From Octopus vulgaris (taxonomy: Eukaryota): 64,000 bases of DNA. Shown in pieces: positions 1 through 36,952 of this stretch (position 1 is its first letter; every line of letters starts with the position of its first letter). The stretch is taken from assembly GCA_951406725.2 (NCBI GenBank), contig OX597817.1, forward strand, positions 66,960,001-67,024,000, in the 5' to 3' direction. Made by a program: the position numbers and the translations under genes. Under the pieces are notes generated by a model, which saw only the letters and a list, made by a program, of their open reading frames with translations, was not told the origin of the DNA and did no database searches.

Positions 1-66
1 AAAACTTAATCCAAAAACATTTAATCATTGAAATGCCTGTCATTATACGAAATCTATATTTTGCAG

Positions 67-114
67 CTTCATATTTCGACATCGATAAAATAATCCCAAC
101 TGAACCACCACGCG
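67..114 (+). CDS. Putative 48-nt symmetric (phase 1-1) micro-exon of an unidentified plus-strand gene; xSYFDIDKIIPTEPPR
   Basis: Acceptor tattttgcag at 57-66 and donor G|gtaagt at 115. Only the phase-1 frame is open. A paralogous exon with conserved splice sites lies at 8857-8907. Confidence 0.55.
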
Positions 115-340
115 GTAAGTTCGATATAAATATTTACGTTATCCTTCAGATATCTTTCGCATTACATTGAATAACATGTTGAAAATTGTTTCAGCTAGGA
201 CAGAAATATTTCGAGCACAATAATTATTCACCCGCTGACAAACACATATTTAATCTAATCCTGATTGTGGACCAAATTTCGATGATAAATGATCAAAATT
301 CATGAGTTGAATACAAAAGTAAAATATGCTACATGTAGAC

Positions 341-1052
341 CATAGGTTCTCAGAGTGGGCGCTACCGCCCCAGCCCTCAGTAGGCGTTGAAACAGTCCAG
401 ATGGGCGCTGGTGCTTAAGGAGGTGGAGGGGTTGGAGTGGTAGAGAAAAAGGAGGCGTTGGGAGGACGGCAGTGGATTGGGGGACGCTATGAATTTAGGA
501 TAGTATTACTCTTTACTCTTTTACTTGTTTCAGTAATTTGACTGTGGCCATGCTAGAGCACCGCTTCTAGTCCAGCAAATCGACCCCAGAACTTATTCTT
601 TGTAAGCCTAGTACTTATTCTATTGGCCTCTTTTGCCGAACCGCGATATTTGGAGGACAAACACAGACACACAAACATATACACACAAACATACATATAT
701 ATACATATATACGACGAGTTTCTTTCAGTTTCCGTCTACCAAATCCACTCACAATGCTTTGGTCGACCCGAAGCTATAGTAGAAGACACTTGACCAAGGT
801 GCCACGCAGTGGGACTGAACCCGGAACCATGTGGTTGGTAAGCAAGCTACTTACCACACAGCCACTCCTACACCTATATTATTATAATATTGTATACAAA
901 ATATATAATATTATATTAAATATCAAATGATTCATAGTATATATAAATTAGTAAAATATAAAATATTTGTTTATACATAAAACTAGGGGTGGGGGCGCAG
1001 GGGGTATCATGTGGCCATGAGGGGGATAGTTCCAAAAGTTTGAGAAACTCTG
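341..1052. mobile_element. hAT/Charlie-like MITE interrupted by a SINE
   Basis: Ends CATAGGTTCTCA...TGAGAAACTCTG are imperfect TIRs. 8-bp TSD atgtagac (333-340) / gtgtagac (1053-1060). Confidence 0.65.
508..875 (-). mobile_element. tRNA-derived SINE, family A
   Basis: Reverse complement of the copies at 38455-38858, 42512-42912 and 61367-61788; tail (GAGTAAAA)n. Confidence 0.85.
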
Positions 1053-2147
1053 GTGTAGACTGTGGCTTCTTCCCACTAGTCTTGCGGGAATATTTGTCAA
1101 ACGTGATCGGGGATAAAAATCCCACAAATGTTCAACTGAATTAATACGTGTGATTCACGATGTATTGACGCAAAAATGTAATCTATCACAGAAGCAGTTG
1201 AGTAAGTTTTGTATGAAAATGGATATATGCAATTGCGTCCTGAGAGAGTATCTTCTGTAGACGTACGGTGTTAAAAATTGCAAAAACGCATCCGTTCCAG
1301 ACGATACATCAGTCCCACTTTGGTTAGTAGAAATGTCCACCGATAATAGCATGCTAAAACAAAATCTACAGTTACTGATAAACTAAGGATTAAAAAATGT
1401 CTTATGTCGCAGTTGACGACAACGTGAATATAAAATTCGTTATGTGCAACGGAAGCAGTATTAATTTGAAATAGCAATTTGTATCACATATGAACAATTA
1501 CATAATTAAAAGACTAATTCAGCGGGAACACTAAAAATCATCATAATCATAACTGGTTTCATCAAAACCAGATAAACACTTCCGTTTTTACAACCATGTA
1601 ACAATTTACAATAATAAAATTTTCATAAATATACGATTTTCACAATGTTGAGATAAATCATGAATGTTAAATTTCCTTCATTGTCATACACTGACAAACC
1701 CCAGGTTCCACATTTAAGTTAGAGATATTAAACATAAGATAAATATAATATCTTATCTTGTAGATATTTTGATATTTTTGAATAATGTGGTTACGGCTGC
1801 GGTATCTGGAATGAAGTCATATATTTTATCATTGAAATAGTTCCCATCATATTAAAATGTCTTGAAAATTGTATCTGATTGAAGGAATAACTGTCTTTGG
1901 CGTAGATGACATTCAGTTAGTGATAAATACATACTTTGAAACTTGATAATGTGCGCGTTCTTTCCAACTCAGTAGAACAAGTTAACAAAACTAAAGAAAT
2001 AGTTAGTTAGTTATGTAGAGGTAACATTGTACATATATTATGAAATGGATGAGCTAATACTTCCGTACATTGCTACAAACATGGCATTATTATTGCTAGA
2101 TTTAGCATTTCTTTGAAGCTATTAAGCACATTATATATGTATATATA

Positions 2148-3358
2148 CAGGGGTTGGACAAAATAATGGAAACACCTAGCATCATAGCATCATAATTTTG
2201 AAATACCTATAAAACCATCAAAAGTTTGTTTATTTTTATGGTTTTTGATTTATTATTAGTGTTGCTTAGTATCTTTTGCTAAAATTGCTGGGTTTTTTTT
2301 CACATATCATTAGGAAAAGGTAATTAAAATTCGTTAAAATGACAGAGGTCAAATTATTGGAGCTCATATGGCAGGCGCTAGCGTTACGAAAACAGCCGAA
2401 ATATTTGGTGTATCAAGAAGTATTGACTAGAAATTAATGGCAGCCTTTGAGAAAGAGGGAAAAACCTCCTCGTCGAAACAAAACTCCGGAAGAAAACCAA
2501 AACTTTCAGATAAGGACCGTCAAACTCTTACGCGAATTGCTAGAAAGGATCGCAAAAGTACAGATCCCAAAATTACTGCAGAGCTTAATGACCACTTCGA
2601 GAACACAGTTTCCACAAAAACTGTTGGCCCGGAACTGCATAAAACCGGATTTCACGGGAGGGCTGCAATCAAAAACAAACGTTGCAAAGCGTTTAGATTG
2701 GACTAAAAACCTACAGAATTGGTTTCCAGAGCAGTGCAAGAATGTTATTTCTCGAACGAGTCAACTTTTACCTTATTTCCGACCACCGGCCGAGTATACG
2801 TTTGGAGACAGTCAAAGGAAGCATTTGACCCAGACTGCCTTCTTCTAACTGTTAAACATGGAAGAGGATCTGTGATGACCAGGGAGGCTATATCTTGGAA
2901 ATCCGACGGCCCAATGATTTCCCTTCATGGCAGAATTAATAGTCAAGACTATTTAAGCCTTTTATCTGATTAAATTTATCCTATGGTTGCGGAACTGTTT
3001 CCGAAGGGAAACAAAATCTTTCAGAATGATAATGCACCAATTCAAACAGCTAAAGTTGTTACTGAATGGCACGAGGAACATTCTAATGAAGTTGAACATC
3101 TTATCTGGCCACCACAGTCCCCAGATTTCATAGAAAAACAAGTAAGGAGTCGATATCTTCTACCATCATCCCTACAAGAACTGGAGACTGTTTTAGCTAA
3201 AGAATGGATAAAAATTCCTTTAGAAACAATTCAAACTTTGTATGAATCCATATATTGTGGAATTCAAGCTGTAATTAGTGCCAAAGGCGGTCCTACCCTA
3301 TATTAAATTAAATTGGTTTGAAATTTTAAGGTCTTTCCATTATTTTGTCCAACACCTG
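2148..3358 (+). mobile_element. Tc1/mariner DNA transposon, near full length, decayed
   Basis: 30-bp TIRs CAGGGGTTGGACAAAATAATGGAAACACCT and the reverse complement of AGGTCTTTCCATTATTTTGTCCAACACCTG. TA TSD at 2146-2147 and 3359-3360. Confidence 0.95.
2339..3306 (+). pseudogene. Tc1-like DDE transposase pseudogene
   Basis: Motifs GRKPKLS, FSNES, TVKHGRGSVM, FQNDNAP, WPPQSPD and AVISAKGGPTLY, broken by stops and frameshifts. Confidence 0.9.
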
Positions 3359-3360
3359 TA

Positions 3361-3417
3361 TGTGTATGTATATATGTGTCTATATATATATGCATATATA
3401 TGTGTATATACATGTAT

Positions 3418-3465
<48 letters not shown>

Positions 3466-3590
3466 TATATGTATATATATATATGCATATATGTATATAT
3501 ATACATATATATAGATATTATATGTGTGTGTGTATATATATATTTATATGCATATATAGATATTTGTATTTATATATGTATGTATATATA

Positions 3591-3652
<62 letters not shown>
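3361..3652. repeat. (TA)n-rich microsatellite
   Basis: Directly visible. Confidence 0.95.
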
Positions 3653-3655
<3 letters not shown>

Positions 3656-3994
3656 AGTTATGTAGAGGTAACATTGCATATATAATGTGCAATGGGTGAT
3701 CTTACATTTCCGTACATTGCTAAGAAATTAGAATTTCTATTGCTAGATCTAGCATTTCTTTGAAGCTATTAAACATTATGTGTATATATATGTTGTTGTA
3801 TTTAGGAATGGTCATTTTGCCAGTTTAGCCAATAAAAACACACGCACTATATATTTGGTGTTAATTTGCTTCAGCTTTATTTATTTTTTACGTTAATCTT
3901 AATCTTATTTCGGTCAGAGTTCTTTCGTCACACTTCTGTGACCTCATCAGTGGTCCATTGCTTTCTTCTTTCTTATTTGTGTTTTATTTTCTTA

Positions 3995-4530
3995 CTAGTG
4001 GCACTTCTTCTTCACACAGCTCTCCTCCTCCAACCGTAGTACATGACCATACCAGCGCAAACGTCTCTCTTGCACGCCACATCCGATGCTTCTTATGTCC
4101 AACATTTCTCTCAAGGCGCTTACACTACGTCGTGTGTGCACACTGACATTAAACATACAGCGGATAATGCTAGCTTCATTTCTTTCGAGTCTACGCATAT
4201 CCTCAGCAGTCATGGCCCATGTTTCACTACCATGAAGCATGGCAGTTCGCACACATGCATCATACAATCTACCTTTCACTCTGAGCGAGAGGCCCTTTGT
4301 CACCAGTAATGGTAGAAGCTTTCTAAACTTAGCCCAGGCTATTCTTATTCTAGTGGCAACACTCTTTGAGCATCCACCTCCACTACTAACTTGGTCACCT
4401 AGGTAGCAGAGCTATCAATTACTTCTAGTTTCTCTCCCGGAATGTGATGGAATCTGTTTTCTTAGCATCTGTGGTGTTTATTGCCCCTGTGCATCTGCCG
4501 CACACGAAAGCTATCTTCCCGGTTAATCTT
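3995..4530 (-). mobile_element. RTE-clade LINE fragment (C-terminal to RT)
   Basis: KGRLYDACVRTAMLHGSETW...RRLRWYGHVLR is a typical RTE C-terminal motif. Confidence 0.85.
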
Positions 4531-5873
4531 CGCTTGTGGGGCGTAGGCAGAGATAATTGTAGCTGTGCTGTTCTGCAGGACTAGCCTGAGCTTAAGCACT
4601 CTATCGCATACCCTGACAACCTCTATAACTTTATCTACCCATTTCTCTACTTTATCTGCCCATTTCTCCGCAAGGAGTATACCTATACCCCTACTTCATC
4701 CATGTTACCTTGCCAAAAGATTTTATACCTATGTGTCTTGCCTGCGAGGACCCTAGCTGAAGCTCCTCTCCACCTTACCTTTTGTATGCAGCATACATCG
4801 ACACATCTCCTTTAAAACATCTCTACAATCTCACTAGACCTACCTTTCAGTGTGCCTACATTGACAGTGCCAACTCTGAAAACTGGGAAAGGAATGTGGG
4901 GTGAGGCTTCGGGAGGAGAAATGTTATTCAGTGCCTGAAAAGAAGAGGGAGGTTGTTGTGTTCGTTTTTTAGGCATGCTTCATCTGTTCTCACTTCCGAC
5001 CTGATATTCAAACATTCAAGCGTGTTAAGATTAAAATTGAGTAGGTGTTAGCGGCATTGTGAGTATTTGTATTATGGTCATCGTAAAGGGAGGGGGTGAT
5101 TTCACTTGATATGTGCATGGAAAATTACTGCGCAGTCGTAATATTTCCAGACGGGATGAAAGCTGGGTAGCTAACCTAGTTGCGTTTTTCTGAGGAGAGA
5201 GTGGGGGTGCAGGTAGTGTAGAGAACAGCACCAGTGAGGAGGTGAGATTGAGAGAAGAGTCATCTGGTAATGGTGGTGACAAATTTCTTGACAGAACGAA
5301 ACGAAAGATAGCCGGTAAGTAGGTGGGCAACTGAGCTAGTTGCATTTGTCCCAGGAGAGAGAGAGGAAGAGTGCAGGTAATATATAGAGAACATCCCAGT
5401 GAGGAGGAGCAGTGGAGAGAAGAGACATCAGGTAATGATGGTTGGAGGAGAGGGAGAGATATCCGGTGTAGATGATGAAAAGATGGAGATAAAGATCGAG
5501 GTATCCGATATTGGTGATGGGGGCGAGACAAGGTGGGCGCACAGCGAACAAGCAAATTTAAATTGATGAGATGGTACGAGGAGCGACAGTAGCAGGTGTA
5601 ATTAGAATAGTATACATTGATAATGTTCATGGCAGATGAGAAATTAAACTAGAGAAACGAGAAATAAGAAATTAAACAGGCCAAGAAACGAATAATTATC
5701 CTAATTCAATAAGCTCCTGAGAAAATTAGCTGTTAGTAAACAATACATTTAAAGGGATAATGGCGAATGAATGTATGAAAGATCGAAAAAACGAGTCTTA
5801 GCTTAGCAATGCATAATCATCATTTAGCGACTGGGCAAGAATAGTGAGAGAATTATGCATGTATATATGTATA

Positions 5874-5904
<31 letters not shown>

Positions 5905-5912
5905 GGGAGTTC

Positions 5913-5964
5913 TGAGCTGATGATAGAAATGTCTTTTTGACTAATCTTGAAACGTACGTTCTCA
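5913..5964 (+). ncRNA. Minimal type I hammerhead ribozyme-like motif (stem II degenerate)
   Basis: TGAG-CTGATGA-(stem II)-GAAAC-GTAC-GTT-CTCA. Stem I is TGAG/CTCA; stem III is the palindrome AACGTACGTT. Confidence 0.55.
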
Positions 5965-6237
5965 AATAACCTTTGCATTTGATTTTTTAATGTTTCTACC
6001 CTCATACTTTCGTGAGTTGAATTGAGCAAACACTATAGAGATTTTCTTTAAGTATTGGAAATAGTTTTAAAAAGTTTTTTTAGCTGCTATTTCTAATGAG
6101 TTCAGTATGCGGCAAAGTAATTTATTTTACTAAGCCCTTTATATAATGTAATAATTTGAATTCGCCTTAAATGGTCCCTTTGCATACTGAATACTTGGTG
6201 AAATTGATTAATTAATTAATTTTACCCTCAATTATTG

Positions 6238-6299
<62 letters not shown>

Positions 6300-6301
<2 letters not shown>

Positions 6302-8000
6302 AATAAAAGAATGGAGTCGAACGAGGATTTTAACACAATTCCTTTAATTTCAACACATGTTTCGAAGACTGCATATTTTTATTCTGAAGGAATAAGGTGC
6401 ATTATGCCGTCTTCTCATCAGGAAAGTCAAGGAAAATCAATCAGCCTCAAGACGGACAAAAACTTTTCTATGGCTTGCTACATATTGACCACAGTGATAA
6501 TGAGTGATTTTAAAAATCCGTTAAAAGCAATGACGTCAAAATTGTTTGGAAGAGGAATTTATGAAAATAAGAAGGGGACAGTATGCATGCTGTATGAATA
6601 TGGATGCGGGGGTGTTTGCTCTGGTTAATAAGTTTATTGCTTATGTGTGTGTATGAGTGTGTGTATATAACTGCATTTATGTCTATGTATGTATATGTGT
6701 GTAGACATGTATAGGTAGGGGCCGGTTGTCAGATAAATATAGCAGTAAAGCGAGAAATTTGTGTCTGTGTGTTTGATTAAGCGTATGACAGAGACAGATA
6801 AGTAGAAAGAGAGAGGGAAAGGTAGAGAGGAAGGGATGAACATACGCCAGTGACATATAGTATCATTGTTTTATGTAACGGATTAGACGTAAAAGGGACG
6901 TGAAATTAAATACTAAAACAGAGAAGTTATCAATATTAATTATCATTTGTTGAATGAAAAGTATGTTTTTGCCAGTGCATACATTTATAGGATTTTTCTG
7001 TTAACGTGTTAACTAAATGGAACTTGGCGAAAATTATATGGTAGAGCTCGGAAATACAAATTCCGCAAAATTTCCTGCCCTTATCAAAAGGAAAGGATAC
7101 AGACAATATGGACCAATCCAGCTTAAAAGTTATATTATTGTCCTTAAGACGCCAAACTAATTTACTTAGTCCTGTGCTCTGTTGTTTTCTCTTATCTCGG
7201 AACGTTGAATAATGATTTGAAATTCTCTCTGATAATTTGGAAGTTGTTGCCCCAATATAAAAGAAGACATCGGTACCGGTAGAAATTCTACATTGGTAAA
7301 TTGTATTCTTAATTTTGGAGTTACTGGACAAGAACCTTAATCTGTTAGGATTTCCTTCAGAGATTGAGACTGAATTATTAATGATATGATTGCTGTTAAT
7401 ATTACTGTTAGTTTTAACCCGTACATTATTTATATTATTATTATCATTATTATCATTAATATTAATAGCATTACAACCGGCAATATTCCTGGCAATAGAA
7501 ATATTGTTGTTGATACCATTATCAGCCCGACTAGTGCTATTATTAATACTATCATTGCCTACACTAACGTTACTACGAATGTTGCTACTATCAATACTAT
7601 TTCTATTAATATTATTGTATGTTTGGTTGGAATCGATAAAAATAGTGTTGGATCTTCCGGGTGAAGGATCTCTGTTTAGCAGCTTGTTATTATGAGAAGC
7701 GATAATTTGTGAAAGATTTCTAGTGTTAGAGAATGCAATTCTCACCTTATGTGAATTTATAATAGAATAATACCTAGCCACTGCTTCACGGAACTGTAAG
7801 GGAAGGTTCGATTTGATTTGTTTTCCGAAAGGTATAACAAACCAGATATAGTTTTTTGTAGATTTAGAATTGCTCACCGTGTTATTTTTCACAGTAAAGG
7901 GAAATTTTCTATGGTGTGAATTTGGGGTTGGGTGTTGATTGCAACCCCAGGTCCATAAGTTATTAATCTTATGTACGTCGGCACCTCTGTACATAAGTAA
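6300..8000 (-). mobile_element. Penelope-like element, 5'-truncated (RT thumb, Asn-rich linker, GIY-YIG endonuclease, pLTR)
   Basis: ORF 6936-7994 contains NTIYQCRI...FFYIGAT...LSERISNH (GIY-YIG). A hammerhead lies in the downstream terminal region. Confidence 0.85.
6348..6425 (-). ncRNA. Minimal type I hammerhead ribozyme of a Penelope pLTR
   Basis: Minus strand reads TTTC-CTGATGA-GAAGAC...GTCTTC-GAAAC-ATGT-GTT-GAAA: intact core, 4-bp stem I, 6-bp stem II. Confidence 0.75.
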
Positions 8001-8170
8001 AGGTACTTAAAGTTACAGCTTTGCTCTATAAATTCATTGTACCATATTTTTTTATCGAATGACATATTACAGGCTTTTGAACAGAGTCATCATTAGATGG
8101 CTTCACAACCTGAGAACACCACCATCTAAAAGTGCTTCATATCAAATCCTGTAAGCTCTCTTTTTTTCAG

Positions 8171-8224
8171 CTCCGTCTTCCTTCGAGGATGTTAGTACCG
8201 TTGCTACTTCTGAAACTACACAAT
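8171..8224 (+). CDS. Putative 54-nt symmetric micro-exon; xPSSFEDVSTVATSETTQ in phase 1 (Ser/Thr-rich)
   Basis: Strong acceptor ctctctttttttcag, donor T|gtaagt, length a multiple of 3. Confidence 0.5.
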
Positions 8225-8856
8225 GTAAGTTGATATACACTCCGTGTGTACGCAATAACTTACATAGCTGAACCACTGTTCATTTCGACAGCAACTCTTC
8301 GCAGTTTAATTTGCACTATGACAAAGTTCTTATAGCTAGTGATTATCATGTCGCACGAAGAGACCCTTCAAGTGGTTTTTTCCCGATGTGTACTGAACTC
8401 CTGTACACCTACCCTGTGGGGAAATCTGTGTCATTATCGCATATAAAATATTCCTCATATGCAAATGATGTAATTAATGTATTTCTCAGTCCAATGTCTA
8501 AAATCTTCGTTTTGCTACAGAGCAATTTGAATAAGTCTTGTATGAAAGTTGATTGAGAAGATTAAATCAACTACAGTACATTATTTGTAAATCGTTTGCT
8601 GAAAACGGAATGAAAGGCAAATATAGTTGGATTCAGGCAGCACTGAACTCATTCAGACCTTATAGTTGTTCTAAATCATCACTCTTATAATATTCCTTGT
8701 TCGTTTTAAGAAGATATGATACAAACTTTAGATTTTACGGCAAATATGTGAAAACTTATTGTGAGAAATCTATAAATAAATAGATGATCCTTTCAAAAAA
8801 CTTTATCCAAAAACATTTAATCATTGACATGCTTATATAAAATCTATATTTTGCAG

Positions 8857-8907
8857 AGCTAATTTTCCACGGCTTCAAGAACATTTCGTCAACTGAAGAA
8901 CCACCGG
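8857..8907 (+). CDS. Putative 51-nt symmetric micro-exon; xLIFHGFKNISSTEEPP, paralogue of 67-114
   Basis: tattttgcag| ... G|gtaagt. Only the phase-1 frame is open. It lies in a duplicated block (1-330 vs ~8797-9120). Confidence 0.55.
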
Positions 8908-9394
8908 GTAAGTTCTATATAGATTTTTACGTTGTCTTTGAAATATTTTTCGCATCACATTGAATAACATATTGGAAATTGTTTCAACTAGGACAGAGGT
9001 ATTTCTAGCGAAATAGTCATTCATCCATTGTCAAATATATACTTTATCTTTTCCCGATTGTGGACCTGTTTTCCATGATAAATTATCAAAATTCATGAAT
9101 GGAATGTAAAAGTATTATGTTAAGGAAGTATACGTCACATTGCAGTTTATTGTTGGAGCGAAGAAATGATAGCTTCTGTTTTACGAATTTAGCATCTTGA
9201 ATGCTTAGCACATTTTGCTAACACACACACACATACACACTCATATACACCAGGCTTATTTCTGTTCCTGTCTACCAAATCTACTCACAAGGTTTTTGTC
9301 GATCTGAAGCTATAATAGAAGTCATCTGCTCAAGGCACGAAGCAGTGGGACTGAACCCAGAGTCATGTCGTTAAAAAACAGACTTATAATATAC

Positions 9395-10020
9395 TTTTTA
9401 CTCTAGGCACAAGGCCCGAAACTTTTGGGGAGTGGTCCAGTCGATTAAATCGACCCAGTACGCAACTGGTTCTTAATTTATCGACCCCGAAAGGATGAAA
9501 AGCAAAGTCGACCTCGGCGGAATATGAACTCGGAACGTAAAGACAGACGAAATACCTATTTCTATTTCTTTACTACCCACAAGGGGTTAAACACAGAGGA
9601 GACAAACAAGTACAGAAAGACGGATTAAGTCGATTACATCGATCCCAGTATGCAACTGGTACTTAATTTATCGACCCCGAAAGGATGAAAGGCAAAGTCG
9701 ACCTCGGCGGAATTTGAACTCAGAACGTAACGGCAGACGAAATACCTATTTCTTTACTACCCACAAAGGGCTAAACACAGAGAGGACAAACAAGGACAGA
9801 CAAACGCATTAAGTCGATTATATCGACATCAGTGCGTAACTGGTACTTATTTAATCGACCTCGGAAGTATGAAAGGCAAAGTCGACCTCTGAGTTCAAGG
9901 TTGACTTTGCCTTTCATCCTTTCGGGGTCGATAAAATAAGTACCAGTTGAGCACTAGGGTCGATGTAATTGACTTTTTCCCTCCCCCGAACTTGCTGGCC
10001 ATGTGCCAAAATTTGAAACC
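9395..10020. mobile_element. Cluster of SINE family B: three tandem minus-strand units plus a plus-strand partial copy
   Basis: Repeated core GTCGACTTTGCCTTTCATCCTTTCGGGGTCGATAAA..AAGTACCAG, resembling the Meta/MESC SINE core (from memory). Confidence 0.85.
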
Positions 10021-10056
10021 AATCTTAATATCTGTCTCTTTTTTTCATTGTAACAG

Positions 10057-10107
10057 ATCAATTGAAGAAAACCGTACTAATGACGTATTTGATTAATCAT
10101 ATTCCTC
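10057..10107 (+). CDS. Putative 51-nt symmetric micro-exon; xQLKKTVLMTYLINHIP
   Basis: Acceptor tctctttttttcattgtaacag, donor C|gtaagt. Only the phase-1 frame is open. Confidence 0.5.
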
Positions 10108-11996
10108 GTAAGTTTAATGGTTATAAATATATCCACTTTTCATGTTCTTCGTCCTTCTTAATGTTGCTGTTATTGATAATGTAGATGACTTGAACTTCTC
10201 ATTGTTATTGTCTACATTTTTTATGGTGTTGTTGCTGATAAAAACAAAAGCTTATGATAAAAGGCATTCCTGCATGACCACTCATGTAATTTCATATATG
10301 TAGGAAACCGAAGATCACATTATTTTAGTCTTCTTTTTAAAACAAAGTGTAATAAGAGGGGAATTTTGCTGTTATTTCTAGCAGCTAGAGTGATCATATA
10401 GAAACTCACGTATAATCTCGTTGTTGTTATTGTAAGGGAACTGCAAAAACACTGGTAGATACGAAAGGAATTCTGTTAGGATTATTTTCTTGTATTCTTG
10501 AGAAAAGCGAGACAAGTGGGTTTGTTGATTAACATTACATTGCGTGTGATCAAAGACATTCCAGCAACGGCCACCCTCTCTTTTTACAGCATAGCGTACC
10601 CTGAGTACATTATCCAATATGTTCATTTTTAAAGATTATAGGGTATGCTATGAAATAGATTTTGACTGCTAGTATTAGCAATTAGAGCAACTATGTAGAT
10701 TTTCACTTGTTAGCTTGCATAGATTTAAAAAGTGGTATTAATTATTATTCTGTGAAGAAGAATAAAAGGCAAGTGTTTTCGTCTCTGTCCGCTATTCGTC
10801 CCGTCTTGAGTTGCAAGGCCTTATATTATATATTACTTTGTTTGCATAATGTATATTTATTTCATTTTTATTTCTATGTTCACATTCTGTCGTGTTTGGT
10901 CTGTTGTTTACTCGCTATTTCACCGCAGCTTCTCGTCGCTGACGCCACCAAAGGGGAACGATGTCGTTAAAGGCGTAAAATTATGATCCTTTGGATGATA
11001 ACTGATGGGGATTTAGTGACATTCTATGTCTGTATTTTCCGGTCGTTCCATTTGTTTGTACTTTTATACAAATTTTGAATGTATTATACACACACACAAT
11101 TCGATGCATTTTAAATACAGTTACTATTCGTTACTAAACATTAAACACAATATCATCGTAAATACTGCTATCCTATCTATGTTTATGTGTAGTGAAAAAC
11201 TGACCCCATCTCATTCATGAACCGGACGACAAAAGTATATTGTTTGATTATATATAACATGCAGCTTTATAATTAAATATTATTATACACAAAATGAAAG
11301 TGAAGCAAAACAAGCCGATAAACAATGTAATCTTCGTATTACTTATGTTAAAGCAATAGGTATACATTCACAAAAGTGAATGTTTCCTCGTAACTTCCAG
11401 AAAAAGAGGATATCTTAAAAATGAGATTGTCTACAAATAGACTTCATGTAGTGTAGATTCCAATTATATTGGAATTTGCTGTGAATAAAAAATTTCGAGG
11501 CAACAATGACCTTCACATTAGTATTTCCAATTACAAAATTTTGATCGGTATAACTTTATCGAATATGGAGTTTGGGACAAAAAGTTTCCGATCAGACAGG
11601 TAACGTATACTTTTAAAAACTGTTAAATGAGAACAGAGGAGAAATGATAATACACTGTAAAGACACTAATTTCTAATCAATGGTTAAAGAGTAATGGTTT
11701 AGCCTTGTGTCCAAGGATAAAAAAAAACAAGGAAAATTCTCTTCTATCTACAAAAATATCAATAGCTAAGCTAACTTGGAGTTTTTGTGGCGTTAAGACT
11801 ATTGTTATGTACCAAACAGTATTTTCTTTTAATCTGCATACTTAAAAAGGACTTGAACCAAAGATATCAGTTTTATAAATTTAGCTTTTTTTTTACATCT
11901 AAGAATAAAATCTGTAGCTAATAATAATTCCCCCTCCTTGTATCTCCTCTGTCTGACTCTTTCTCATTTTCATACTGGTTTCATTTCTATTTACAG

Positions 11997-12055
11997 CCGA
12001 ATGTCATGAAGTTTGTAACGTCACGCCAAACAGTAATTCAATTATTTTTTCATAA
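11997..12055 (+). CDS. Putative phase-1 exon xECHEVCNVTPN; either a 36-nt exon ending 12032 (A|gtaatt) or a terminal exon to TAA at 12053-12055
   Basis: Long polypyrimidine tract ending ttctatttacag at 11996; the reading frame is compatible with the upstream micro-exons. Confidence 0.4.
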
Positions 12056-14132
12056 CTCATTTTTTAAAACCTTCAGTATCTTAGCAACTGCAACAAGGAA
12101 GACTAATTTTCGCCATTCAAAAACACTCAGTAACCCAATCTTTTATTACCTAGAGTCAAAATTTTCGTCGCATTGTCACTTGCACGATTCACATCACAGT
12201 TTCTGCGCGTTTTTGAATTACTAAAATGAGTTTACCACGCTTCAATTCCCTTACTTTCAATACACGATCACAAATTAAATGAATTGTTAGACAAGTACAA
12301 CCTCCGAAATTCTGTATATTAATGTCTAATTTAGGCATAAGGCAACGAATTTGAAAAAAACCGATACAGCCTCAAAGATACCAACATATAATCAGTACTT
12401 ATTTTATCAACAGCAGGAAGAGTGAAAAACAAGGTTGACATAGGTATAAATTAAGACTGAAACTTAAGGAATATCACAAGTCATTTAATCTGTCGCTCAA
12501 TTGCTGTTACTGTCACATACCATCTCTTGAGTCGTTAAACCATCGTTTACTAATCTTCCTGACTTCGTGTCACACACAATGAAATGTTGAAAATGAACAC
12601 TTGTTTTAATGTTAAAAATTTAGAAAATCGTAAAAAAATGCTATGAATTTCCTTGCTTTATTAATCCTTCATGTGTGTAATAAAATTATGAATTACACAT
12701 TTTTCAAGGTGCTCAAAAATTAAAGTTTTCTTGAAGTTTTAAGTAATACTTTGGAAAATTCATAGCACAGTGTTTGAGAACAACTGAGCTAGTATGTTGG
12801 AATGCGATATTTTTCTCGGCTCATTGCGATTCGATTTCAAATCATGTCGAAGACAACTTTGCCTTTCCTTTAGGAGTCAATAGATATATTAATAGTTGAG
12901 TACTAGGGCCCTGTCTTTCCAGTTCTCTCTCTCTTTCTCAATTGTATCAGTAATTCAAACCTTCAGCCTTGTGACATTATGTTTTGGTTATTCAGCTTGG
13001 CGGTTATAAAAGCACATGAAAATTAAAAGCCGCTCACAGTGATTTTACGAGTATAGATTCCTGTGATTGAATTACTAATTGTTCACTGTCGAAACCAATT
13101 TTCCTCATAAAGAGAAAAATAAATCGTTATGGTAGAGACGGTTTGCAGTTTACGAATTGTGAGTTCATATTTCCTTGCAAGTAATTTGTACCTGCTGTGT
13201 ACATATTGTACCAATTGGTGATATTTACCTGCAATTAATTCCCCGAGGCATTGTAGCCGCTTACTTCAATGCTATTGGAATCACTATCGAGTACTAGTTC
13301 TGTGGGTCCTTGCAACTCCATGAAATGTTTTAACCCAAGGAACACGTCATTTTCAGTAGTTTTTAACGGGGTTAGTTGCGTTGATGGATAAAGCTGGTTT
13401 GAGTTCCAGTATACGTGTGTGTGTGGATAAAGGAAGAAATGAGAAAACCAGAAGCTTAAAATGTGACGATTTATTCAACCCGTTAAAGAGCATTAACACG
13501 GCAAAACTGATGAACTACATCTTGAAAGAATGGTCAGAATATTTACACAATATTTTCGCATGTAGTTGGTACATAAGGTATGCGGTGTAAAACAGGAAAA
13601 CAAATACGTAACGACTTCTGCTGAAGGACAGGAACAAACGTACCCGTCAAAGGATAGCTGAGGCTGCCTGCGAAATAAACTCCTCTCTGCCGCAGATTTG
13701 AACTCGACCGTACATCCCAACTCACTGAGGAAATATCGAAAAAGGTTTCCTTATGTAGCTGACTATAGGCTTCCAGCGGACAGACATAAATTTCTCGCTC
13801 TCAGCTGGTCTGTCACGTGTCGTTCATGTCCTCATACGTTTGTGTGATTTCTTTTTTTTCTTATTTTCTTGTTTTAAGTCCCCTATATCATGTATTGTTC
13901 CGTTTATGTTCGCCCCTAGTGGGTAATTAAAAATCGCACTTGCTACAAGTTAAACTGTGAATAAGTTTTGGGGTTATTTTGCTGCGTTATCGTGAGTTTA
14001 CCTTTACTGTTGTCAATCTACTGGATTTTTCTTGTTACTTTTGTGGTTTGTTGAACTCTGTTATTGCTTTTTGGAAGTAATTGTTATGTGTCCCCCTTGA
14101 AACAAGGGGCAATTGTTAATTGCTAGGATAGT

Positions 14133-15349
14133 ATGTCCAATTCGACCAACATAGCGGGTGGAAGTCCCGTGAGGGAAATGCGTGTTACAGAGTAAAAATT
14201 TATTATACAAGCAAACAAGGAAAAAATTTCGCAGCGTTGAACCAATAGAGTGTATAATGAAATGTTTAAAAATGAGGCACAGGAACTTAAAATTGTCCCT
14301 TCCAATGAGTCGTTCGAAGATACAGAAAAAAGACCGTTATCTACAAAACATGGATAATAAAGGCGAAAAATCTAGACATGGCATCAAGGGAGGGAGTGTA
14401 ATTAGCACTGAAACAGAAGTGGAACGATATAACATACATGACTAGAGGGAAAAAGTTCGCGACAATAGAGGTTCGCTTTAAATCGGAAGAGCTGGCTAAG
14501 AAGCATTCGGCGAAGACTATAAAAACGGAGGAGGTGGTACTGTTACCGACGTACCTAGGCAGGAGAACGTCGAGGATTAAAGTGGGTGAAGTACCACCAG
14601 AGGTGAATGCGGGATGGATTGTAGCAGCCATAACCTTTGGCAACGAAGACAAGATGACAATCCTTAACACAACAGTGATTGATTGTCAGAATTGGCTGAG
14701 GAAGATAGAAATGATTGCCCAAGCTTCCCCTGTCGATTTATAAAATTTGATAGAAATCATTGAGGTGAGGAAAACCAAGCTTCGTGTGATGGTCGAGGGG
14801 AAGAATCCTCCTTGTTTTAGATGTGGCCAGTTAGGTCACATCAGGACCGAGTACAAACCTCTCACCAAGGAAGCACCGAATCCCCCACCACAGGAAAAAT
14901 CACCGGAAGCAACAATATCTACACCAAAACCACAGGACTAAACACTAGGACCTGCGGCGGAGACGGAGGAAGAAGTGTCTGAGAACGCGTAGGAAGGCGA
15001 ATGGCAGAAGCAACAGTGAAAGAAAAAGATAAGGAAAAGAGAGGCAATAGGGAGTCACTCAAGCCTATCGTCAAGAAAGAATGTGAAAAGGAATAGTATG
15101 GATAATTCACTAACGGATATTGTTTTTGACCATTCACTATATTTGGTAGCAGTAAATACAAAGAATGAACGTTTAAACACAAAAATAAAAAAGATTCCAA
15201 CAGCCGTAGTCGAAAAAGACCTTGACACACCAGAAAATATAAAAATTGTAAAAATGGATACGAACAATTTGAATATACTGAGAAGCGAGTTCCACACGAC
15301 CTGGGCCTTCCAAGATTACATTTTTCATCTCAATTTTTTGAGGGCCTAG
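14133..15349 (+). pseudogene. Tx1-type ORF1 (gag-like, CCHC knuckle) pseudogene
   Basis: RGKKFATIEVRF...LLPTYLG...VEGKNPPCFRCGQLGHIRTEY; homologous to 22138-23077. Confidence 0.8.
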
Positions 15350-15487
15350 TCAAAGACATCCCCGCAAGTCCCGGCATAGAAGATTAAGATGGGGATTTTA
15401 TTTGGAAGACCCGAATGAAAGGAGTAGCGACAGGCGCCTTTGTCTCCGGTCTCGCTCTAGTGAGCTTTTTTTCTTTTTTTTTCTTTT

Positions 15488-18400
15488 ATGGCTTCTTTTG
15501 ACGTAGGTGGCATAAATGTTCGCGTCCTGAAGTCGACCTGGAAGCAGGGATGTTTTGTGAACAACCTCAGGTCGCATAATTTGGATGTAATAGTAGCTAC
15601 AGAGACCAGACTGAGTAATTTGTAAAACTTTCCCCCCTCCTAACCAGCTACGAGAAAATTATTTCTCCATGCCCACCTGGAAGAGGGGCGGGTGTTGCAG
15701 TTCTGCAACGGAGGACAGATTGGTCGTCCTTGATGTGACGCCTAGCAGTGATAAGACCTTCAGGCTGGTAGCTGTCTATGCACCCCTCGGTGCTCGACAG
15801 TCTGAGTATTTTAGAGGTTTAGAGAAATTCCTAGGCACGTTACACACTTTAATTCTGTTGGGCGTCTTTAAAACTATATGCGATGCACGCGTAGATAGTG
15901 TTGGCTCGAACTCGAATAAGAGGGGAAACCCGCACTTCAAAGATCTGTTCAGTCATTTTCAGCTGGCAGATCGGTATAGACCAGAATTCCCGGACGTTCC
16001 ATTATGGACATGGTCTAATAACGACGGGTCTTCTAGATCTTATATAGATAGAATTATAATAAGAACTTAGTTAATTATCCACTTTTCTATCACGTCAGCT
16101 ACAGTGATCATAAATTTGTGACCTGTAAGCTTGACATAGATAGGTTACGTAGACGGTGTTCCGGTTACTGGAAGCTCAACAAGTCCCTTTTGATTTGTGA
16201 AGAGTACGGTAGCCGGATTAGACTGTTAGTGATGAGGGCATTGGCCGGTTTCAGTATTAACAACAAATGGTGGTATGCCCTCAAAAGAGCCATAAAATTT
16301 GAGTCGATTAGCTATAGCATAGAGATAGCTAAGTAGAAGACTAGAATTAAAAGGGATCTAGTTAAGGCTGTAGAAGAAGCGCTGAGGTCAGGCTGTGCGT
16401 CCCAAGTTTTAGCGGCGAGATTGGCTCTGAACCAACACCTCAAAGCTGTACACGAGGAATACATAGTCAGGGCGAAGCAAAGTGCAATAAGACAAGAGGG
16501 AATCAAAGCTGCCGGATGGGCCCGTGTGGTAGAAGCCAAACGGGGCAAATATACCACAATAAGGTCTGTGACGGACCAACAAGGTAACTTGGCAAAAGAA
16601 CCCGAGGAAATGTGTAAAGTCTTTCAAGAGTATTTCGCCCAGCTTTTCGACTTCCTCGCCGGTTTGCTGCGTCCCTCGGGACTGGAGGCGAAGTGCTCTG
16701 AAGGGCCGATCCCAGCTGCGGAGGTGGAGAAGGCTCTCGCGGACTGCGGCGCGGACAAGTCGCCAGGGTTAGACGGTCTTCCCTACGAGTTACAGCATGC
16801 CATACTAATTTGGGCACCTACTGGCATGTGTTTTCACGAACTGGCAACAGGACGGGTTCCTCCCCAGGCCTGTGAGTCGGGGAGTGGTGACACTTCTTAT
16901 AAAGGACCCAAACAAGCGGGACTTTATAGACAGTTTTAGGCCATCACTGCTTAACGCAGAGCTGAAGATTTTGTCCAAGGTATTAGCAAAAAGGTTGGCG
17001 TATGTCGTAGGTGGAATTGTTGGGGAGGCACAAACTTGTGCCATTCCAGGTAGATCCATACACGACAATCTCCATCTTATACGCTATACCTTAGAGAGGG
17101 TTCTCAGGATTCCTGGCAAGGATGGGGCTTTGGTCCATTTAGACCAATCTAAGGCTTACGATAGGGTTGACCATCGGTATCTGGTGTCGGTCCTCGCGGC
17201 GGTCAGTTTGTGCCTGACCTTTCTCAGTTGGATCATTGCTCTTTATAGTAACATCGATTCGATCGTTCAGGTGAACGGTTTCTTCTAGTAGCCGTTCTCA
17301 ATCAAGCGCTTAATATGTCAAGGGTATCCCTTCTCCCCACTCCTATATGTGTTGGCTCGAGCTTTTTCTCCGGAAACTGGAGGAGACAGGGGGCGTCTCG
17401 CGGGATCTAGGTTGCGGAAAATCGGTTTCAGCGTATGCGGACGACGTCACCATCATCGTATCCACAGTGGACCACCTACAGAGGGTAGGTGCGGCCATTA
17501 AGTATTACGAGGCGGCGGCAGGAGCAACAGTTAGCCGGGATAAATCAGTCGGCTTGTAACTCGGTACCTGGAAGGGCACGTCGATGTCACCCAACAACAT
17601 CGTCGGTCGCTGGACGGTGGGACTGGTTAAAATGCCAGGGGTCTGGTTTGGACCGGATCTCCAGATAGTGAAGAATTGGAGCGAGGTGGCGAGCAGGGTG
17701 ACCCTCTTAACTCGAACCTGGTCCAAGCGGTGGATATCTCTGAAAGGGAGGGCGGAGGTCGCAAATGTGTTTATCGCATCTGTAATCACCTACCGCCTAA
17801 CCGTCGTGCCTTGCCCCGCTTCATGGCTAAGCAAGCTGGAGCGCTTGCTCTTCCGCTTTTTGTGGAGGACGACGGTCCGCTTGTAAGGCGTTCTATCTGT
17901 TGCCAACACCCGCTAAAGGGTGGGCTAGGGAAGCCTTGGCTGTTGATGCGCTGAGACTGAAGCATTTGTGGCTCTGCCTGGATGGTGAACAGGTGTGGTC
18001 TCCGTTCATTAAACTGATGCTTTCGTTGAGCTGGAACCGTGGATCAAGTGTTGATCAAGGTCGGGATCACGGCAAGCCACGTGCCATCAGGCTCTCGTTC
18101 TCCTCTCTCACACGATTAATGCCAGCGGCGGTGATTCCACCTCGTTCTTTTATAGAGGGTTGGTAGAGGACAAGTGCGACGACGTCCTGGGAGAGACCCA
18201 GGGCCTCTACGATACTCAACTCGCTGGCCTGTTCTGAAGGACATTCGGGCCGGGGCCTTTGTATAATTTCCAAAAGTCTCTTGCTTGGCAATATTACCGA
18301 GGAGCTTTACCAGTTCGCGATAAACTGGCAAGGCATGGTGCTTCTTGTCTGCCCACGTGCCCAAGGTGCGAGCAGAACGACGAAACCGTTCTGCACGCGA

Positions 18401-18770
18401 TTGTGCAGTGCCCGTGAATATTGGATATGTGGGTTTATGTCAAACAGCTACTGTCATTTCTAGGAGGAGTACAACTGTCCTCCGAGTCCACCATTAATTT
18501 TGTTCCACCTTCCTCCTTTAATCGAGAAGGAAAGGTTTGTTTTCTCACTGTGGTTGCTATAGCGAAAGAGGTGGTTTGGAAGACCCGAATGAAAGGAGTA
18601 GCGGCAGGCGCCTTTGTCTCCGGTCTCGCTCTAGTGAGCTTTTTTTTTATTTTTCATCTTAAAAGGAAAATAAGACTGGAGAAGAGGTGTCTGTTGTGTG
18701 ATATATATGGTTAAACATGGAAGGATGTAGCGCAAGAGCTGAGAATAAGTGATCTCTCTTGAATGTAAGC
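15488..18770 (+). pseudogene. Tx1-type ORF2 (APE endonuclease, reverse transcriptase, C-terminal Zn finger) pseudogene
   Basis: Motifs INVR, AVYAP, SRSYIDRI, YWKLN, KSPGLDGLP, LDQSKAYDRVDH and AYADDV, with many frameshifts. Confidence 0.9.
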
Positions 18771-19296
18771 CATAGAAGTAAGGCAAGGCTTCAGTGGCGG
18801 ACCGGGGCTTGCGGGGTAGAAGCTGAACCCGACTCCCGCTCTATTGTGTTGTCCCATTGTATTGTACTTCATTCGTTTTATTTCATAAATTTTTATTGTC
18901 ATATTTACGTTATAATCATACCATGACCCTACCTCACCCCAGTTTATTTGTATTGCCATCCCCCACCCCTCTGTGTTGGCCTCTGGTGGACAACAAAGAA
19001 TTTATACTTGCTACAAGTTAAATTAATCTTGTCAATTGACACGAGTGAATATATCCTATTCGATCCTGAAAAATTTAGTGACAAAACTGTTAATAAGCAA
19101 ATTCGAGCTAGAGTACTCTTCCTTTCTCGTAGAATCGTCCTCTGCTATTCCACAGAATACATGAGATTTTATGTTTTTCTCGATCAGAGGGGAAAAACGC
19201 ATTAAAAAAAGTAGTAGCTAGTTTGATCTGGGTGTGATCTGAACTCATAAATTAAGCGACACTGAATTATATAGTATAAAATATATATATTCCGAT

Positions 19297-19507
19297 ACAT
19301 TATTTACATTTGACGGATATTTGTCCTCATCTTGTTTGTTGTTAACACAGCGTTTCGGCTGATATACCGTCCAGCCTTTACCAGGTGTCTTGGGGAATTG
19401 GGGTTAGTAGCCCGCACTCTTAACTACTACGCCATATGCCCGTGGATGTAGTGGTTAAGAGCGCGGGCTACTAAACCTTAGATTCCAAGTTCGATTCCTG
19501 AATAATA

Positions 19508-19540
<33 letters not shown>

Positions 19541-19715
19541 TTGAAAAATACCTTAGGAATGAGAACCCAGGTTTGAAATTTCCCGCAGACACCTGATGAA
19601 GGTTAGAAGGTATATCAGCCGAAACGTTGTGTTAACAACAAACAAGATGAGGACAAATATTCATCAAATGTAAATAATGTACATAATTCCTCATCTCTTA
19701 GATATAGAACTGTAT
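19297..19715. mobile_element. Fold-back non-autonomous element: tRNA-derived head, (AAT)n and Penelope-type hammerhead tail, with an inverted partial copy
   Basis: 11-bp TSD TATATTCCGAT (19286-19296, 19716-19726). Inverted arms 19297-19397/19578-19680 and 19399-19436/19443-19478. Confidence 0.75.
19589..19632 (+). ncRNA. Minimal (dimer-type) hammerhead ribozyme
   Basis: ACAC-CTGATGA-AGGTTAG...TCAGCC-GAAAC-GTT-GTGT. Stem III is the loopless palindrome AACGTT. Confidence 0.65.
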
Positions 19716-19832
19716 TATATTCCGATTACTGAAGCACGCAAGACTTGAAAATTTATCTATTTTTTCCATTGTAGAATGTAAAAACGAAGCTTGTAATCGT
19801 AGACAAAATAGTAAGTAGCCATTTATATAGTA

Positions 19833-20046
19833 CAGTAATCCCTCGACTATTGCGGGCGTTAATTTTTTTAAAAAAACCCGCGGTAGGTGAAAATCCGCGA
19901 AGTAGAAACAGTACTGAACTGGATATTATTTTTATAATTTGTATATATTTATTTTATTACAAATGCAAAACAACATTACGGTGGATCGACGAAAGCGTAA
20001 ATAATAAACCGCGATAGGTGAATCGCGATATGGCGAAGGATTACTG
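19833..20046. mobile_element. pogo/Tigger-like MITE
   Basis: TIRs CAGTAATCCCTCG / CGAAGGATTACTG with TA on both sides. Confidence 0.8.
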
Positions 20047-20910: not shown

Positions 20911-21505
20911 GGCGGCGCGCTGGCAGAAACGTTAGCGCGCCGGGCGAAATGCTTTGTGGTATTTGTTCCGCTGCTGCGTTCTGAGTTCAAATTCCGCCGA
21001 GGTCGACTTTGCCTTTCATCCTTTCGAGGTCGATTAAATAAGTACCAGTTACGCACTGGGGTCGATATAATCGACTTAATCCGTTTGTCTGTCCTTGTTT
21101 GTCCTCTTTGTGTTTAGCCCCTTGTGGGTAGTAAAGAAATAGGTATTTTGTCTCTCGTTACGTTCTGAGTTCAAATTCAGCCGAGGTCAACTTTGCCTTT
21201 CATCCTTTGGGGTCAATAAATAAAGTACCAGTTATGCGCTGGGTCGATGTAATCGACTTAATCTGTCTTTCTGTCCTTGTTTGTCCCCTCTATGTTTAGC
21301 CCCTTGTGGGTAGTAAAGAAATAGGTATTTTGTCTCTCGTTACGTTCTGAGTTCAAATTCAGCCGAGGTCAACTTTGCCTTTCATCCTTTGGGGTCAATA
21401 AATAAAGTACCAGTTATGCACTGGGGTCGATGTAATCGACTTAATCCGTCTTTCTGTCCTTGTTTGTCCCCTCTATGTTTAGCCCCTTGTGGGCAGTACA
21501 GAAAT
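20911..21505 (+). mobile_element. SINE family B multimer: head plus three body/tail units
   Basis: Single 15-bp TSD ATATGTTTGTCTTCC (20894-20908, 21506-21520) enclosing ~181-bp tandem units. Confidence 0.88.
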
Positions 21506-21638
21506 ATATGTTTGTCTTCCATATGAGGGTGTTGTGCATCACTGTATCATACATGTATGTAAAGAAAATAAGAAAACATAAATTAACAACAGCACTCAGA
21601 GAGCGCAAACCTGCGCCAAGGCAACTCCAACGTCCTTG

Positions 21639-24270: not shown

Positions 24271-26087
24271 AATTGTTAAGTATTCAATTACAAAGACTCC
24301 ACTTAAATACAAAAATAATGATGTTTATATATTTCAGACTGTGTAAAATGCATAGTAAGTCGTAGATAAAAGCAATGCCAACATCATTAATGAAACTATA
24401 TTGAGGATATGGTAAGTGTTTGTACTGATATTTTTTTCTGAATGCAAACATGGCTCTTTCCTCGTGAAATTCTCTTTGTAATTATGTAATTTTAGGTGTG
24501 ATCTCACTGTTTGGTTCTTTAGGAAGATGTCTTTTGTTGTAACCTCAGATTAACCAAAGCCTTGTGAGTGAAATTTGATGGTTGCAAACTGTGGAAGCTC
24601 GTCAGAGCTAGTGGATGGCAGACACAAATTACTGCTCAGTTTAACATCTGGCCCTTGAGTGCTTTTAGCAGTGTACACCCGTTTGCTAGTGTTCAGAACT
24701 AGGTCGCCAGTATAAAAATGCTCTCCTTGATCCTTGTCAATCTGAAGAATAATGGGCGCTGTTCTTCCTCTTCTGACAGTCCATTAAGAAGAAAAATGAA
24801 TTAAAATACTGAAATCCGAATTAGTAGATTTTCTCTTTAAATCACAATCATTGGAGAACTACTGACAGAGCAGTTAATGTCCATATCTCTTCAGAGTATG
24901 AACGTTTAGAGTCATTACCTGTTTGCTTAGCTCTAAATAGAATTTACTGGGATAGATTAAATTGTAAGAGAAGATCACTGTTGTGTTTGATGAATATTTT
25001 GTTAGCTTGGTTTTTTTTTTTTTGCTGAGGTTTTTCTAGAAATAAATATATTTAGGTCTGACTGTCTAGTTAGCTGTGAGAGGGAAGAGCTTTTCTCAGA
25101 CATTGTATTACACAATTGTTTAATGCATCCTTCTCGTTTTTAAAATGCTAGAGCATAATAATGAGGTTTGGCTGAAAATTTTAGCAAGTCAAGCTACCAG
25201 TAGAGGTTCCCTTATTAGCTCAAGCAGTTAAACAATAATGTCTTACTGTTGTGCCATGTTTAATCTGTTAAACAGACATTTTCCTCCTTGTTAAACATAT
25301 AAATTTATTAACAGAAACTTCGTAAGTTGCATATTCTACCACATCTAATATAAGAAAAGTATTTTGTCAAAACATATAGAACTAAATTATACGTCCATAA
25401 TTCTAACCATAATGTCTTTTAATTGCATACCCAAGGTTGAATGACCATTCCAACATTTGTAACATGAAGAAGATAGCGTATCAAGCTTCTGTGAGAGATA
25501 ACAGTGTGCTGAAATCATATATTGAACTGACACAAACCATTCAAGAAACAGTTTGCGCAACATATTCATTACTTTCATACGCATAAGCGTAAGGAAATGA
25601 TTTTGTTAGCATAGATAGGAAAACTCAAGAGCATAAGTATTAATTTCTATATAAAATGGTAGTAAATTAATCAGGTTAAGGCGTATAAAAATTCCACATA
25701 CACAATGCATATCAAGCGCAAAAGCATTTCAAATACTGTTTTCAAAAATACTTCTATTAAATAAACATATCAGCAATATTACACTATTTGTATATTCACC
25801 TCTAGCTGGTTAAGGCGAATAGTTTCAGAAGTAGAGGAGTACGTAGCACTGAGAAATAGAAATAATCACAAAATATTGATATCTGTTGCTTTCATTCAAT
25901 TTCAGGTCAATTTCGTTTTGTCGGCCTTGAAGTATGCTGTGTTTTTTAACGCAATCTTTAAAGAGATCTCCCTTAGATGAAGTACTGCAGCTTTGTAGCA
26001 TTTTTTAACACGAAATATACGTACACATACTTGCATATACATATACACACACACATATATATGAATATATATACATATATAATGTGC

Positions 26088-33120: not shown

Positions 33121-33135
33121 AGGCTACGTTTGACG

Positions 33136-33571
33136 TATAATGGAAGGCAAGGTTTACGATATCATGAAAATATCACCTTCTCCCATTATATCTTGTTCTT
33201 TGCGTAGTTCAGGCTCCGGCAGGCGAAGAAAGAAGTCTTTAAGCACAAATGCAATTTACAACTGGTTTATTTACAAGTTTCACAGAACAGGTGAAGTGCG
33301 TTGCTCTCAGCAACCATCTCGAGTTGTATGCGTGGCGTTGTATCTCCATTAGTGCGGGTACATTGTCTCTGGGGGTACAACATGTAGTCAGGTCCAGCCA
33401 GTGAAGTGTGCTCAGCAAGCGCTGCTGCGGAGAAGCGGAGAGAGAGAGAGTGAATCTGTTTCTGTTTTGCCCTGTTTCTGTTTTGTCCTTAGGTGTCGCT
33501 CTAGTCTCGGAGATAGCGATGGCTGCCGCGAGATCACATCCAATATGGCACTGACTGCTTGTGCCGCTACA
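33136..33571 (-). repeat. 3' LTR
   Basis: Direct repeat of 38226-38450 plus 38859-38968; begins TGTAGC on the minus strand after the purine tract. Confidence 0.85.
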
Positions 33572-36905: not shown

Positions 36906-36952
36906 AAAAAATGTACGAGTGAGTTTTAATTAGCCGGAAGTGCTTGACGTGC

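Follow-up and report, generated by a model that had tools for sequence, protein, structure and literature searches.

A single-copy run of same-phase micro-exons in Octopus vulgaris, probably encoding a lineage-restricted secreted protein

Micro-exon genes (MEGs) are defined, in the accessible part of bioRxiv 10.1101/2020.04.08.031872, by having at least seven exons, at least half of which are under 70 nt with a length divisible by three, with at least four of these in a row, and the accessible part of PMC4350168 describes MEGs as apparently restricted to platyhelminths. The locus described here is on the plus strand of Octopus vulgaris contig OX597817.1, with its 3′ part in a 64,000-nt stretch (contig positions 66,960,001 to 67,024,000; here the window) and its 5′ part upstream. 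Its predicted exons include 24 of 6 to 54 nt, all multiples of three, and a database protein model of the locus (CAI9721163.1; here P0001) by itself contains 11 that are consecutive. If the prediction is true, the secreted micro-exon gene design reaches beyond parasitic flatworms; no report of a cephalopod or mollusc gene of this kind was found among the papers that the literature searches listed, judged by titles and the starts of abstracts, with subscription papers mostly outside the coverage.

The octopus gene shares several features with schistosome MEGs as these are presented in the accessible parts of PMC4350168 and bioRxiv 10.1101/2023.06.21.545858. In both, the coding sequence is mostly in tiny symmetric exons (about 89% of that predicted here), and there is a signal peptide, putative in the octopus, followed by a rapidly changing mature part, with no known domain in the octopus gene. 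The differences are that schistosome exons are mostly 15 nt whereas the octopus median is 42 nt, that schistosome MEG proteins are up to 189 aa compared with about 350 predicted here, and that the octopus gene is single-copy, belongs to a free-living mollusc, and has no sequence homology to schistosome MEGs that we could find. Isoform pools generated by exon skipping are a MEG feature that is hypothetical for the octopus gene, and MEGs are further marked by a raised dN/dS in the mature part and by expression in outward-facing glands or epithelia.

The SmPoMuc genes of Schistosoma mansoni, in the accessible part of PMC2576457, similarly have a signal peptide followed by repeat exons in kilobase-scale tandem units, and introns that are more alike than the exons; SmPoMuc splice forms with premature stops have a predicted octopus counterpart in stop-making exon junctions. 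However, SmPoMuc has one 27-nt exon per 1 kb where the octopus has two live exons per 2-kb unit, it is a multigene family rather than a single gene, it has a 234-residue C-terminal region instead of a short cysteine end, and no homology between the two was found. Because it is single-copy and has no detectable homology to MEGs or SmPoMuc, the octopus gene appears to be like both in design and not a member of either by descent. Gel-forming and other secreted mucins have Thr/Ser-rich repeats and a cysteine-containing end, but the predicted octopus product is Lys-rich and basic, and P0001 and the two cysteine-exon stretches scanned match no Pfam family above cut-off. Mucin PTS domains consist of repeats dominated by Pro, Thr, and Ser that carry O-glycosylation. 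The term mucin-like, used in an earlier note on the window, is only partly apt, with S+T at 28%, S+T+P at only 34%, and Lys at 18% in the repeat part (exons A1 to E2).

The array itself is real and is bigger than first described. The earlier note reported five micro-exons, and all five are present in the sequence at the coordinates it gave, with lengths of 48, 54, 51, 51, and 36 nt, CAG acceptors, and GTAAGT donors in four and GTAATT in one (11997 to 12032); all are open in phase 1, and those at 67, 8857, and 10057 exclusively so. Its description of the peptides as mostly S/T/P/E-rich holds for three of them (fractions of 0.40, 0.65, and 0.44) but not for those at 10057 (0.19) and 11997 (0.36), and it overlooked the duplication linking 67 and 8857, a sixth symmetric exon at 19775 to 19810, a donor-less copy at 1764 to 1811, and the stop at the junction of 8224 with 8857. 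We examined 200 kb on each side of the window and scanned both strands with our own simple splice-site scores. The five segments most likely form the 3′ portion of a single-copy gene spanning about 61 kb, in which a signal-peptide-like exon 35 kb upstream of the window is followed by 24 symmetric phase-1 exons and then a six-cysteine end; the note had proposed a larger gene and suggested looking upstream for further exons and a signal peptide, and candidates for both are there. The locus is bounded by a minus-strand DENN-domain gene, the probable first coding exon of which has its end near -116 kb, and by a minus-strand gene from about 48 kb. A genome search found the signal exon, the 2-kb unit, and the H exons at no other locus, although diverged paralogues could escape it; the only match of the 2-kb unit outside the locus is one 42-bp hit. 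The features are as follows, in window coordinates (negative values are upstream, and the contig position is 66960000 plus the coordinate).

-35369 to -35284, plus strand: signal-peptide-like exon; ATG at -35344, its own acceptor, and phase-1 donor G/GTACGT
-33011, plus strand: exon x1, 39 nt
-27568, plus strand: exon x2, 39 nt
-27120, plus strand: exon x3, 42 nt, weak sites
-20901, plus strand: exon x4, 39 nt
-19626, plus strand: exon x5, 21 nt
-16531, plus strand: exon x6, 6 nt
-16290, plus strand: exon x7, 30 nt, weak sites
-16146, plus strand: A0, a decayed copy of A with the donor lost
-15222 to -4800, plus strand: five tandem units of ~2 kb, each with exons A and B and a B-related C
-15020, -13005, -11015, -8676, and -6687, plus strand: exon A (48 nt) of units 1 to 5
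-14355, -12354, -10363, -8027, and -6038, plus strand: exon B (42 nt) of units 1 to 5
Plus strand: exon C, B-related, with acceptor CG in units 1 to 4 and AG in unit 5 (C5, -6308 to -6267)
-4589 to -4542, plus strand: exon D, 48 nt
1 to 66, plus strand: end of the intron preceding exon E; the rest of the gene's 5′ part is upstream of the window
67 to 114, plus strand: exon E, 48 nt, phase 1/1; used by P0001; duplicate of 8857, including flanks
1764 to 1811, plus strand: D2, a duplicate of D; 48 nt, open in phase 1, TG at the donor position, probably dead
8171 to 8224, plus strand: exon F, 54 nt; strongest splice sites of the window part; terminal T; skipped by P0001
8857 to 8907, plus strand: exon E2, 51 nt, duplicate of E; used by P0001
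10057 to 10107, plus strand: exon G, 51 nt, more hydrophobic; used by P0001
11997 to 12032, plus strand: exon H1, 36 nt, CxxxC; strong acceptor, weak GTAATT donor (score -1.2); absent from P0001
19775 to 19810, plus strand: exon H2, 36 nt, CxxxxC; E-x-C-N in the same register as H1
24338 to 24411, plus strand: exon I, CxxC; either 17 nt, with a donor after 24354, or 74 nt, with the stronger donor after 24411 and a stop inside
25315 to 25321, plus strand: possible exon J, 7 nt, weak sites
25906 to 25980, plus strand: possible last coding exon K, tentative; its frame depends on the use of J

Each motif is short, and ten of the exons sit in a tandem repeat that would multiply any motif, so chance splice-like sequences in intron or repeat DNA have to be considered. 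A frame-blind rule (YAG acceptor score of at least 1.3, donor GTAAG[TC], and length of 5 to 60 nt) gives 25 plus-strand candidates between -34 kb and +26 kb, of which 21 are multiples of three and open in phase 1, and 0 candidates on the minus strand of the same stretch; window positions 1 to 26000 alone have 5 qualifying candidates of 8. Outside the locus, 5/25 qualify on the plus strand (404 kb) and 6/29 on the minus strand (464 kb), and across 200 Markov simulations the mean was 1.27 and the highest count 4. With duplicated families collapsed the comparison is 12/16 versus the pooled 11/54 (p=1e-4), for thresholds and locus bounds that were chosen after the data had been seen and a rule that misses x3, x4, C5, and H1. 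These counts and a signal exon in the matching phase largely refute chance motifs, which we regard as a very remote explanation.

The signal exon has an ATG followed by a 20-residue hydrophobic stretch resembling a signal peptide by hydropathy and by eye, and it ends in phase 1 with a G that is stop-free with every downstream exon. It was absent from the first donor list and was recognised through the mapping of P0001, a Octopus vulgaris "hypothetical predicted protein" that was the sole match among 399 candidates to a profile of four exon-containing stretches. P0001 maps in frame to the signal exon and 11 micro-exons (x5, B1, B2, A3, B3, B4, B5, D, E, E2, and G), three of which (67, 8857, and 10057) are among the five originally reported. 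Missing from it are 13 of the 24 symmetric exons and all of the cysteine end; it uses one of the five A exons, and its last residues best fit a weak acceptor at 12077. Its first 56 residues correspond to a dispersed repeat (37 matches) that obscures the signal peptide, and were rejected as a genuine protein start. Annotation can hide such genes, as this public model is without half of the exons and its signal peptide is masked. Other O. vulgaris hypothetical proteins, encoded on other contigs (P0003 and P0005), share the repeat-derived start of ~56 residues, which is probably a recurring annotation artefact. Two other candidate starts were rejected: an ATG exon at -53760 to -53613, whose terminal T makes a stop with x1, and a signal-peptide-like open reading frame at -173225, which is a dispersed repeat (40 matches) inside the DENN-domain gene on the other strand.

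When every exon but C5 and F is joined, the resulting model stays open for 353 codons and has 21% S+T, 59 K+R versus 38 D+E, and 9 N-glycosylation sequons, and after the signal it has no hydrophobic 19-mer above 0.94 and no transmembrane-like stretch. Six cysteines are supplied by H1, H2, and I in a 3-6-4-6-2 spacing, which may resemble that of furin-like repeats. The Atlas model of P0001 has a predicted local distance difference test (pLDDT) score of 0.44, which is in line with disorder as weak evidence. We conclude that the locus is probably a single-copy run of 24 same-phase micro-exons, largely cassette-duplicated, encoding an octopus protein of ~340 to 360 residues that is secreted, basic, glycosylated, and for the most part disordered and has a predicted six-cysteine end. 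Alternatively, a hidden 3′ exon could provide a glycosylphosphatidylinositol (GPI) or transmembrane anchor, making the array a cell-surface stalk; one of the possible 3′ ends, the 17-nt form of I joined to K, gives a 29-residue moderately hydrophobic tail (KD15 1.8), and the ~18 kb downstream is repeat-rich and could conceal an exon. However, that tail has internal Lys and Asn and a charged end, the other two ends are short, and outside repeats the sequence up to 52 kb showed no phase-1 hydrophobic exon with an acceptor score of at least 4. Membrane anchoring thus seems improbable, and of the secreted or surface product proposed in the earlier note, the secreted form fits better, with the 3′ end uncertain.

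Neither other species nor the rest of the genome yielded a homologue of the mature part, in searches that are weak on short, low-complexity, fast-evolving modules and in which the cysteine exons were queried as separate stretches. A phmmer search of 1.84 billion representatives with P0001 gave six hits, which are P0001 itself, four to the repeat-derived start, and a frog repeat protein (P0002) that was rejected as a homologue, being a low-complexity repeat match. Residues 62 to 246 matched only P0001 among 2702 candidates of 135 to 431 aa, a protein search with the exon-A stretch gave no candidate, the Atlas search with P0001 gave nothing above 0.77, and no Pfam family scored above cut-off with P0001 or with the G, H1, and H2 stretches. 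This is most likely a lineage-restricted secreted-protein gene, as predicted from its sequence, and the note's lineage-specific label agrees with the lack of a detected homologue outside Octopus vulgaris.

The array grew by duplication of exon-plus-intron cassettes, most recently as the five 2-kb units. Homologous flanks define the groups A0/A/D/D2/E/E2, B/C, and x1/x2/x5, and flank homology was not detected for F, H1, H2, or J, including between H1 and H2; similarity of the G and I flanks was rejected as a duplication trace, as it is explained by a shared repeat end. The window's first 321 bases match 8797 to 9114 at 78%, and a genome search showed no further match to them. Between units, the A-to-B parts diverge by 1.1 to 9.5% in a mosaic manner, which suggests unequal crossing-over or conversion. 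Splice-site loss accounts for the dead copies A0 (donor), C1 to C4 (acceptor CG), and D2 (donor TG), such that exon birth, divergence, and death are visible side by side within one gene. In the F-E2 intron, an acceptor-like site followed by ATAAGT at 8521 to 8540 is possibly another dead micro-exon.

The earlier note called the gene fast-evolving, and the old duplicate exons are far more diverged than their own introns in both pairs compared. E and E2 are identical at 28/48 exon positions (58%) versus 217/260 in the flanks (83%; p=3e-4), and D and D2 at 25/48 (52%) versus 413/473 (87%; p=3e-8), with flank limits that were taken from BLAST hits and so bias toward high flank identity. Transversions show the same pattern (15/48 versus 16/260 for E/E2, and 13/48 versus 25/474 for D/D2), and CpG decay was rejected as the cause, as the excess persists without CpG transitions. 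In these two pairs, exon divergence is about three times that of introns, and may result from selection, slippage, exon conversion, or intron homogenisation.

Copying, losing, or skipping any symmetric exon keeps the frame because each starts and ends in phase 1. The exon skipping proposed in the earlier note would have exceptions: of 378 ordered junctions, 373 are stop-free. The other five create stops, including that between the neighbours 8171 and 8857, and all involve the T-ending exons F and C5. Among them, F with E2 gives TAG, F with H2 gives TAA, and C5 with B5 gives TAA. Because of the TAG, F and E2 are predicted to be mutually exclusive in any full-length product. Two T-ending stop cases are not unusual by chance, since a stop after T would arise with 9 of 25 exon starts, and regulation and decay both fit. 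Adenosine-to-inosine editing of the F-E2 UAG was considered and set aside, as nothing supports it.

It is quite conceivable, at a little short of even chances, that this is a real secreted-protein gene with one or two fixed splice forms, the symmetry reflecting which duplications were tolerated and not an isoform device. Tandem duplication alone could explain the shared phase, and no skipping was observed, but F has strong sites and yet is unjoinable to E2, which makes at least one alternative choice necessary whenever F is included, and P0001, the basis of which is not stated in its record, omits four of the five A exons. A bolder and rather unlikely scenario is that the octopus independently evolved a schistosome-style MEG in which each animal makes a range of secreted variants by selecting among ~24 cassettes in splicing, with stop junctions forcing choices such as F versus E2, and a local process (cassette conversion or targeted mutation) changing exons, synonymous sites included, about three times faster than introns.

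Several observations, besides the flank bias above, weigh against or qualify the reading as a secreted-protein gene. Splice sites are weak at x3, x7, H1, and J, and the 3′ end is ambiguous, with three alternatives that each keep all six cysteines. No spliced read or RNA contig from the gene was seen. In four read runs over 8000 to 19900, none of the joints listed is at an exon junction, and repeats dominated the signal; one RNA run has zero coverage over 8000 to 9190. A listing of 24 runs names no RNA run that contains 8000 to 9200, which is neutral as evidence. Outside repeats, two DNA runs agree at ~99% (in one case with 2 differences per 514 bases), too close for a conservation test. P0001 may be largely ab initio, given that it is a same-locus model with a repeat-derived start and without the cysteine exons; it is not independent of the DNA, and it is not evidence of expression. 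A published O. vulgaris annotation combined transcript alignments with ab initio predictions, according to the accessible part of PMC10700109, so such a model can rest on either. The two old pairs have near-equal nonsynonymous (pN, 0.46) and synonymous (pS, 0.40) divergence, measured on paralogous exons only, and the chance of staying stop-free at this divergence is about 54% per exon. In the five young units, exons and introns vary alike (17/90 versus 117/837, p=0.21), with 12 nonsynonymous and 4 synonymous exon changes on about 65 and 19 sites. Elevated exon change therefore does not establish positive selection, as pS is also high and young-unit exons and introns vary alike.

The near-neutral change in the young units would also suit a decaying or silent gene, as would the dead copies A0, C1 to C4, and D2, and the F-E2 and C5-B5 stop junctions. 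However, the 21 of 25 intact candidates, an in-frame stop or frameshift in none of the 24 exons, and the intact signal exon all argue against a pseudogene, as does conservation of the splice windows across the five units, where those of A and B vary at 1/40 columns versus 117/837 in introns and the exons have no indels. We thus consider decay a poor explanation, and favor an intact secreted-protein gene.

Such a gene would be transcribed in a narrow tissue or stage, its signal peptide exporting the product from the cell. The glycosylated Thr/Lys-rich modules could serve to form a gel or an extended stalk, and the cysteine module could be disulfide-folded and bind a partner. Over evolutionary time, the number of exons would set the product's length and charge; some exons may be skipped in splicing, with F and E2 as alternatives. 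Any assignment of function to the predicted product is a guess; judged solely by architecture and rate, the likeliest role is in a secretion at a contested interface, for instance a coat, reproductive or surface, or a barrier between host and microbes.

The surrounding DNA contains several other elements. In the E-F intron, positions 2127 to 3378 are a Tc1/mariner-type element that has terminal inverted repeats and whose transposase (HTH_Tnp_Tc3_2, and weak DDE_3) is broken, and a degenerate non-long-terminal-repeat retrotransposon (RVT_1) is between H1 and H2 on the plus strand (about 14100 to 19000). A broken long-terminal-repeat (LTR) retrotransposon (RVT_1) is on the minus strand at about 33100 to 39000, with LTRs at 33136 to 33473 and 38226 to 38968 that are about 86 to 90% alike, the second of which contains an insertion of a repeat common elsewhere in the window. 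At about 47900 to 64000 on the minus strand, a convergent gene has its 3′ exons (among them 53122 to 53033, 55838 to 55766, and 56327 to 56272), which may resemble a sorting nexin BAR domain; Pfam and Atlas gave no confirmation.

Upstream, the DENN-domain gene (PF02141, with one exon at E 3e-13) is multi-exon, extends on the minus strand from -116 kb to about -180 kb, and is divergent from the micro-exon gene. Within it, on the plus strand, a 36-nt segment at -174116 to -174081 has a strong acceptor and donor and is open in phases 0 and 2, and may be due to chance. A repeat of ~184 bp, tandem and dispersed, is present at 9439 to 9889, 20977 to 21506, and 30102 to 30318 and is extremely abundant in the DNA and RNA runs; exons G and I each follow the end of such a repeat copy.

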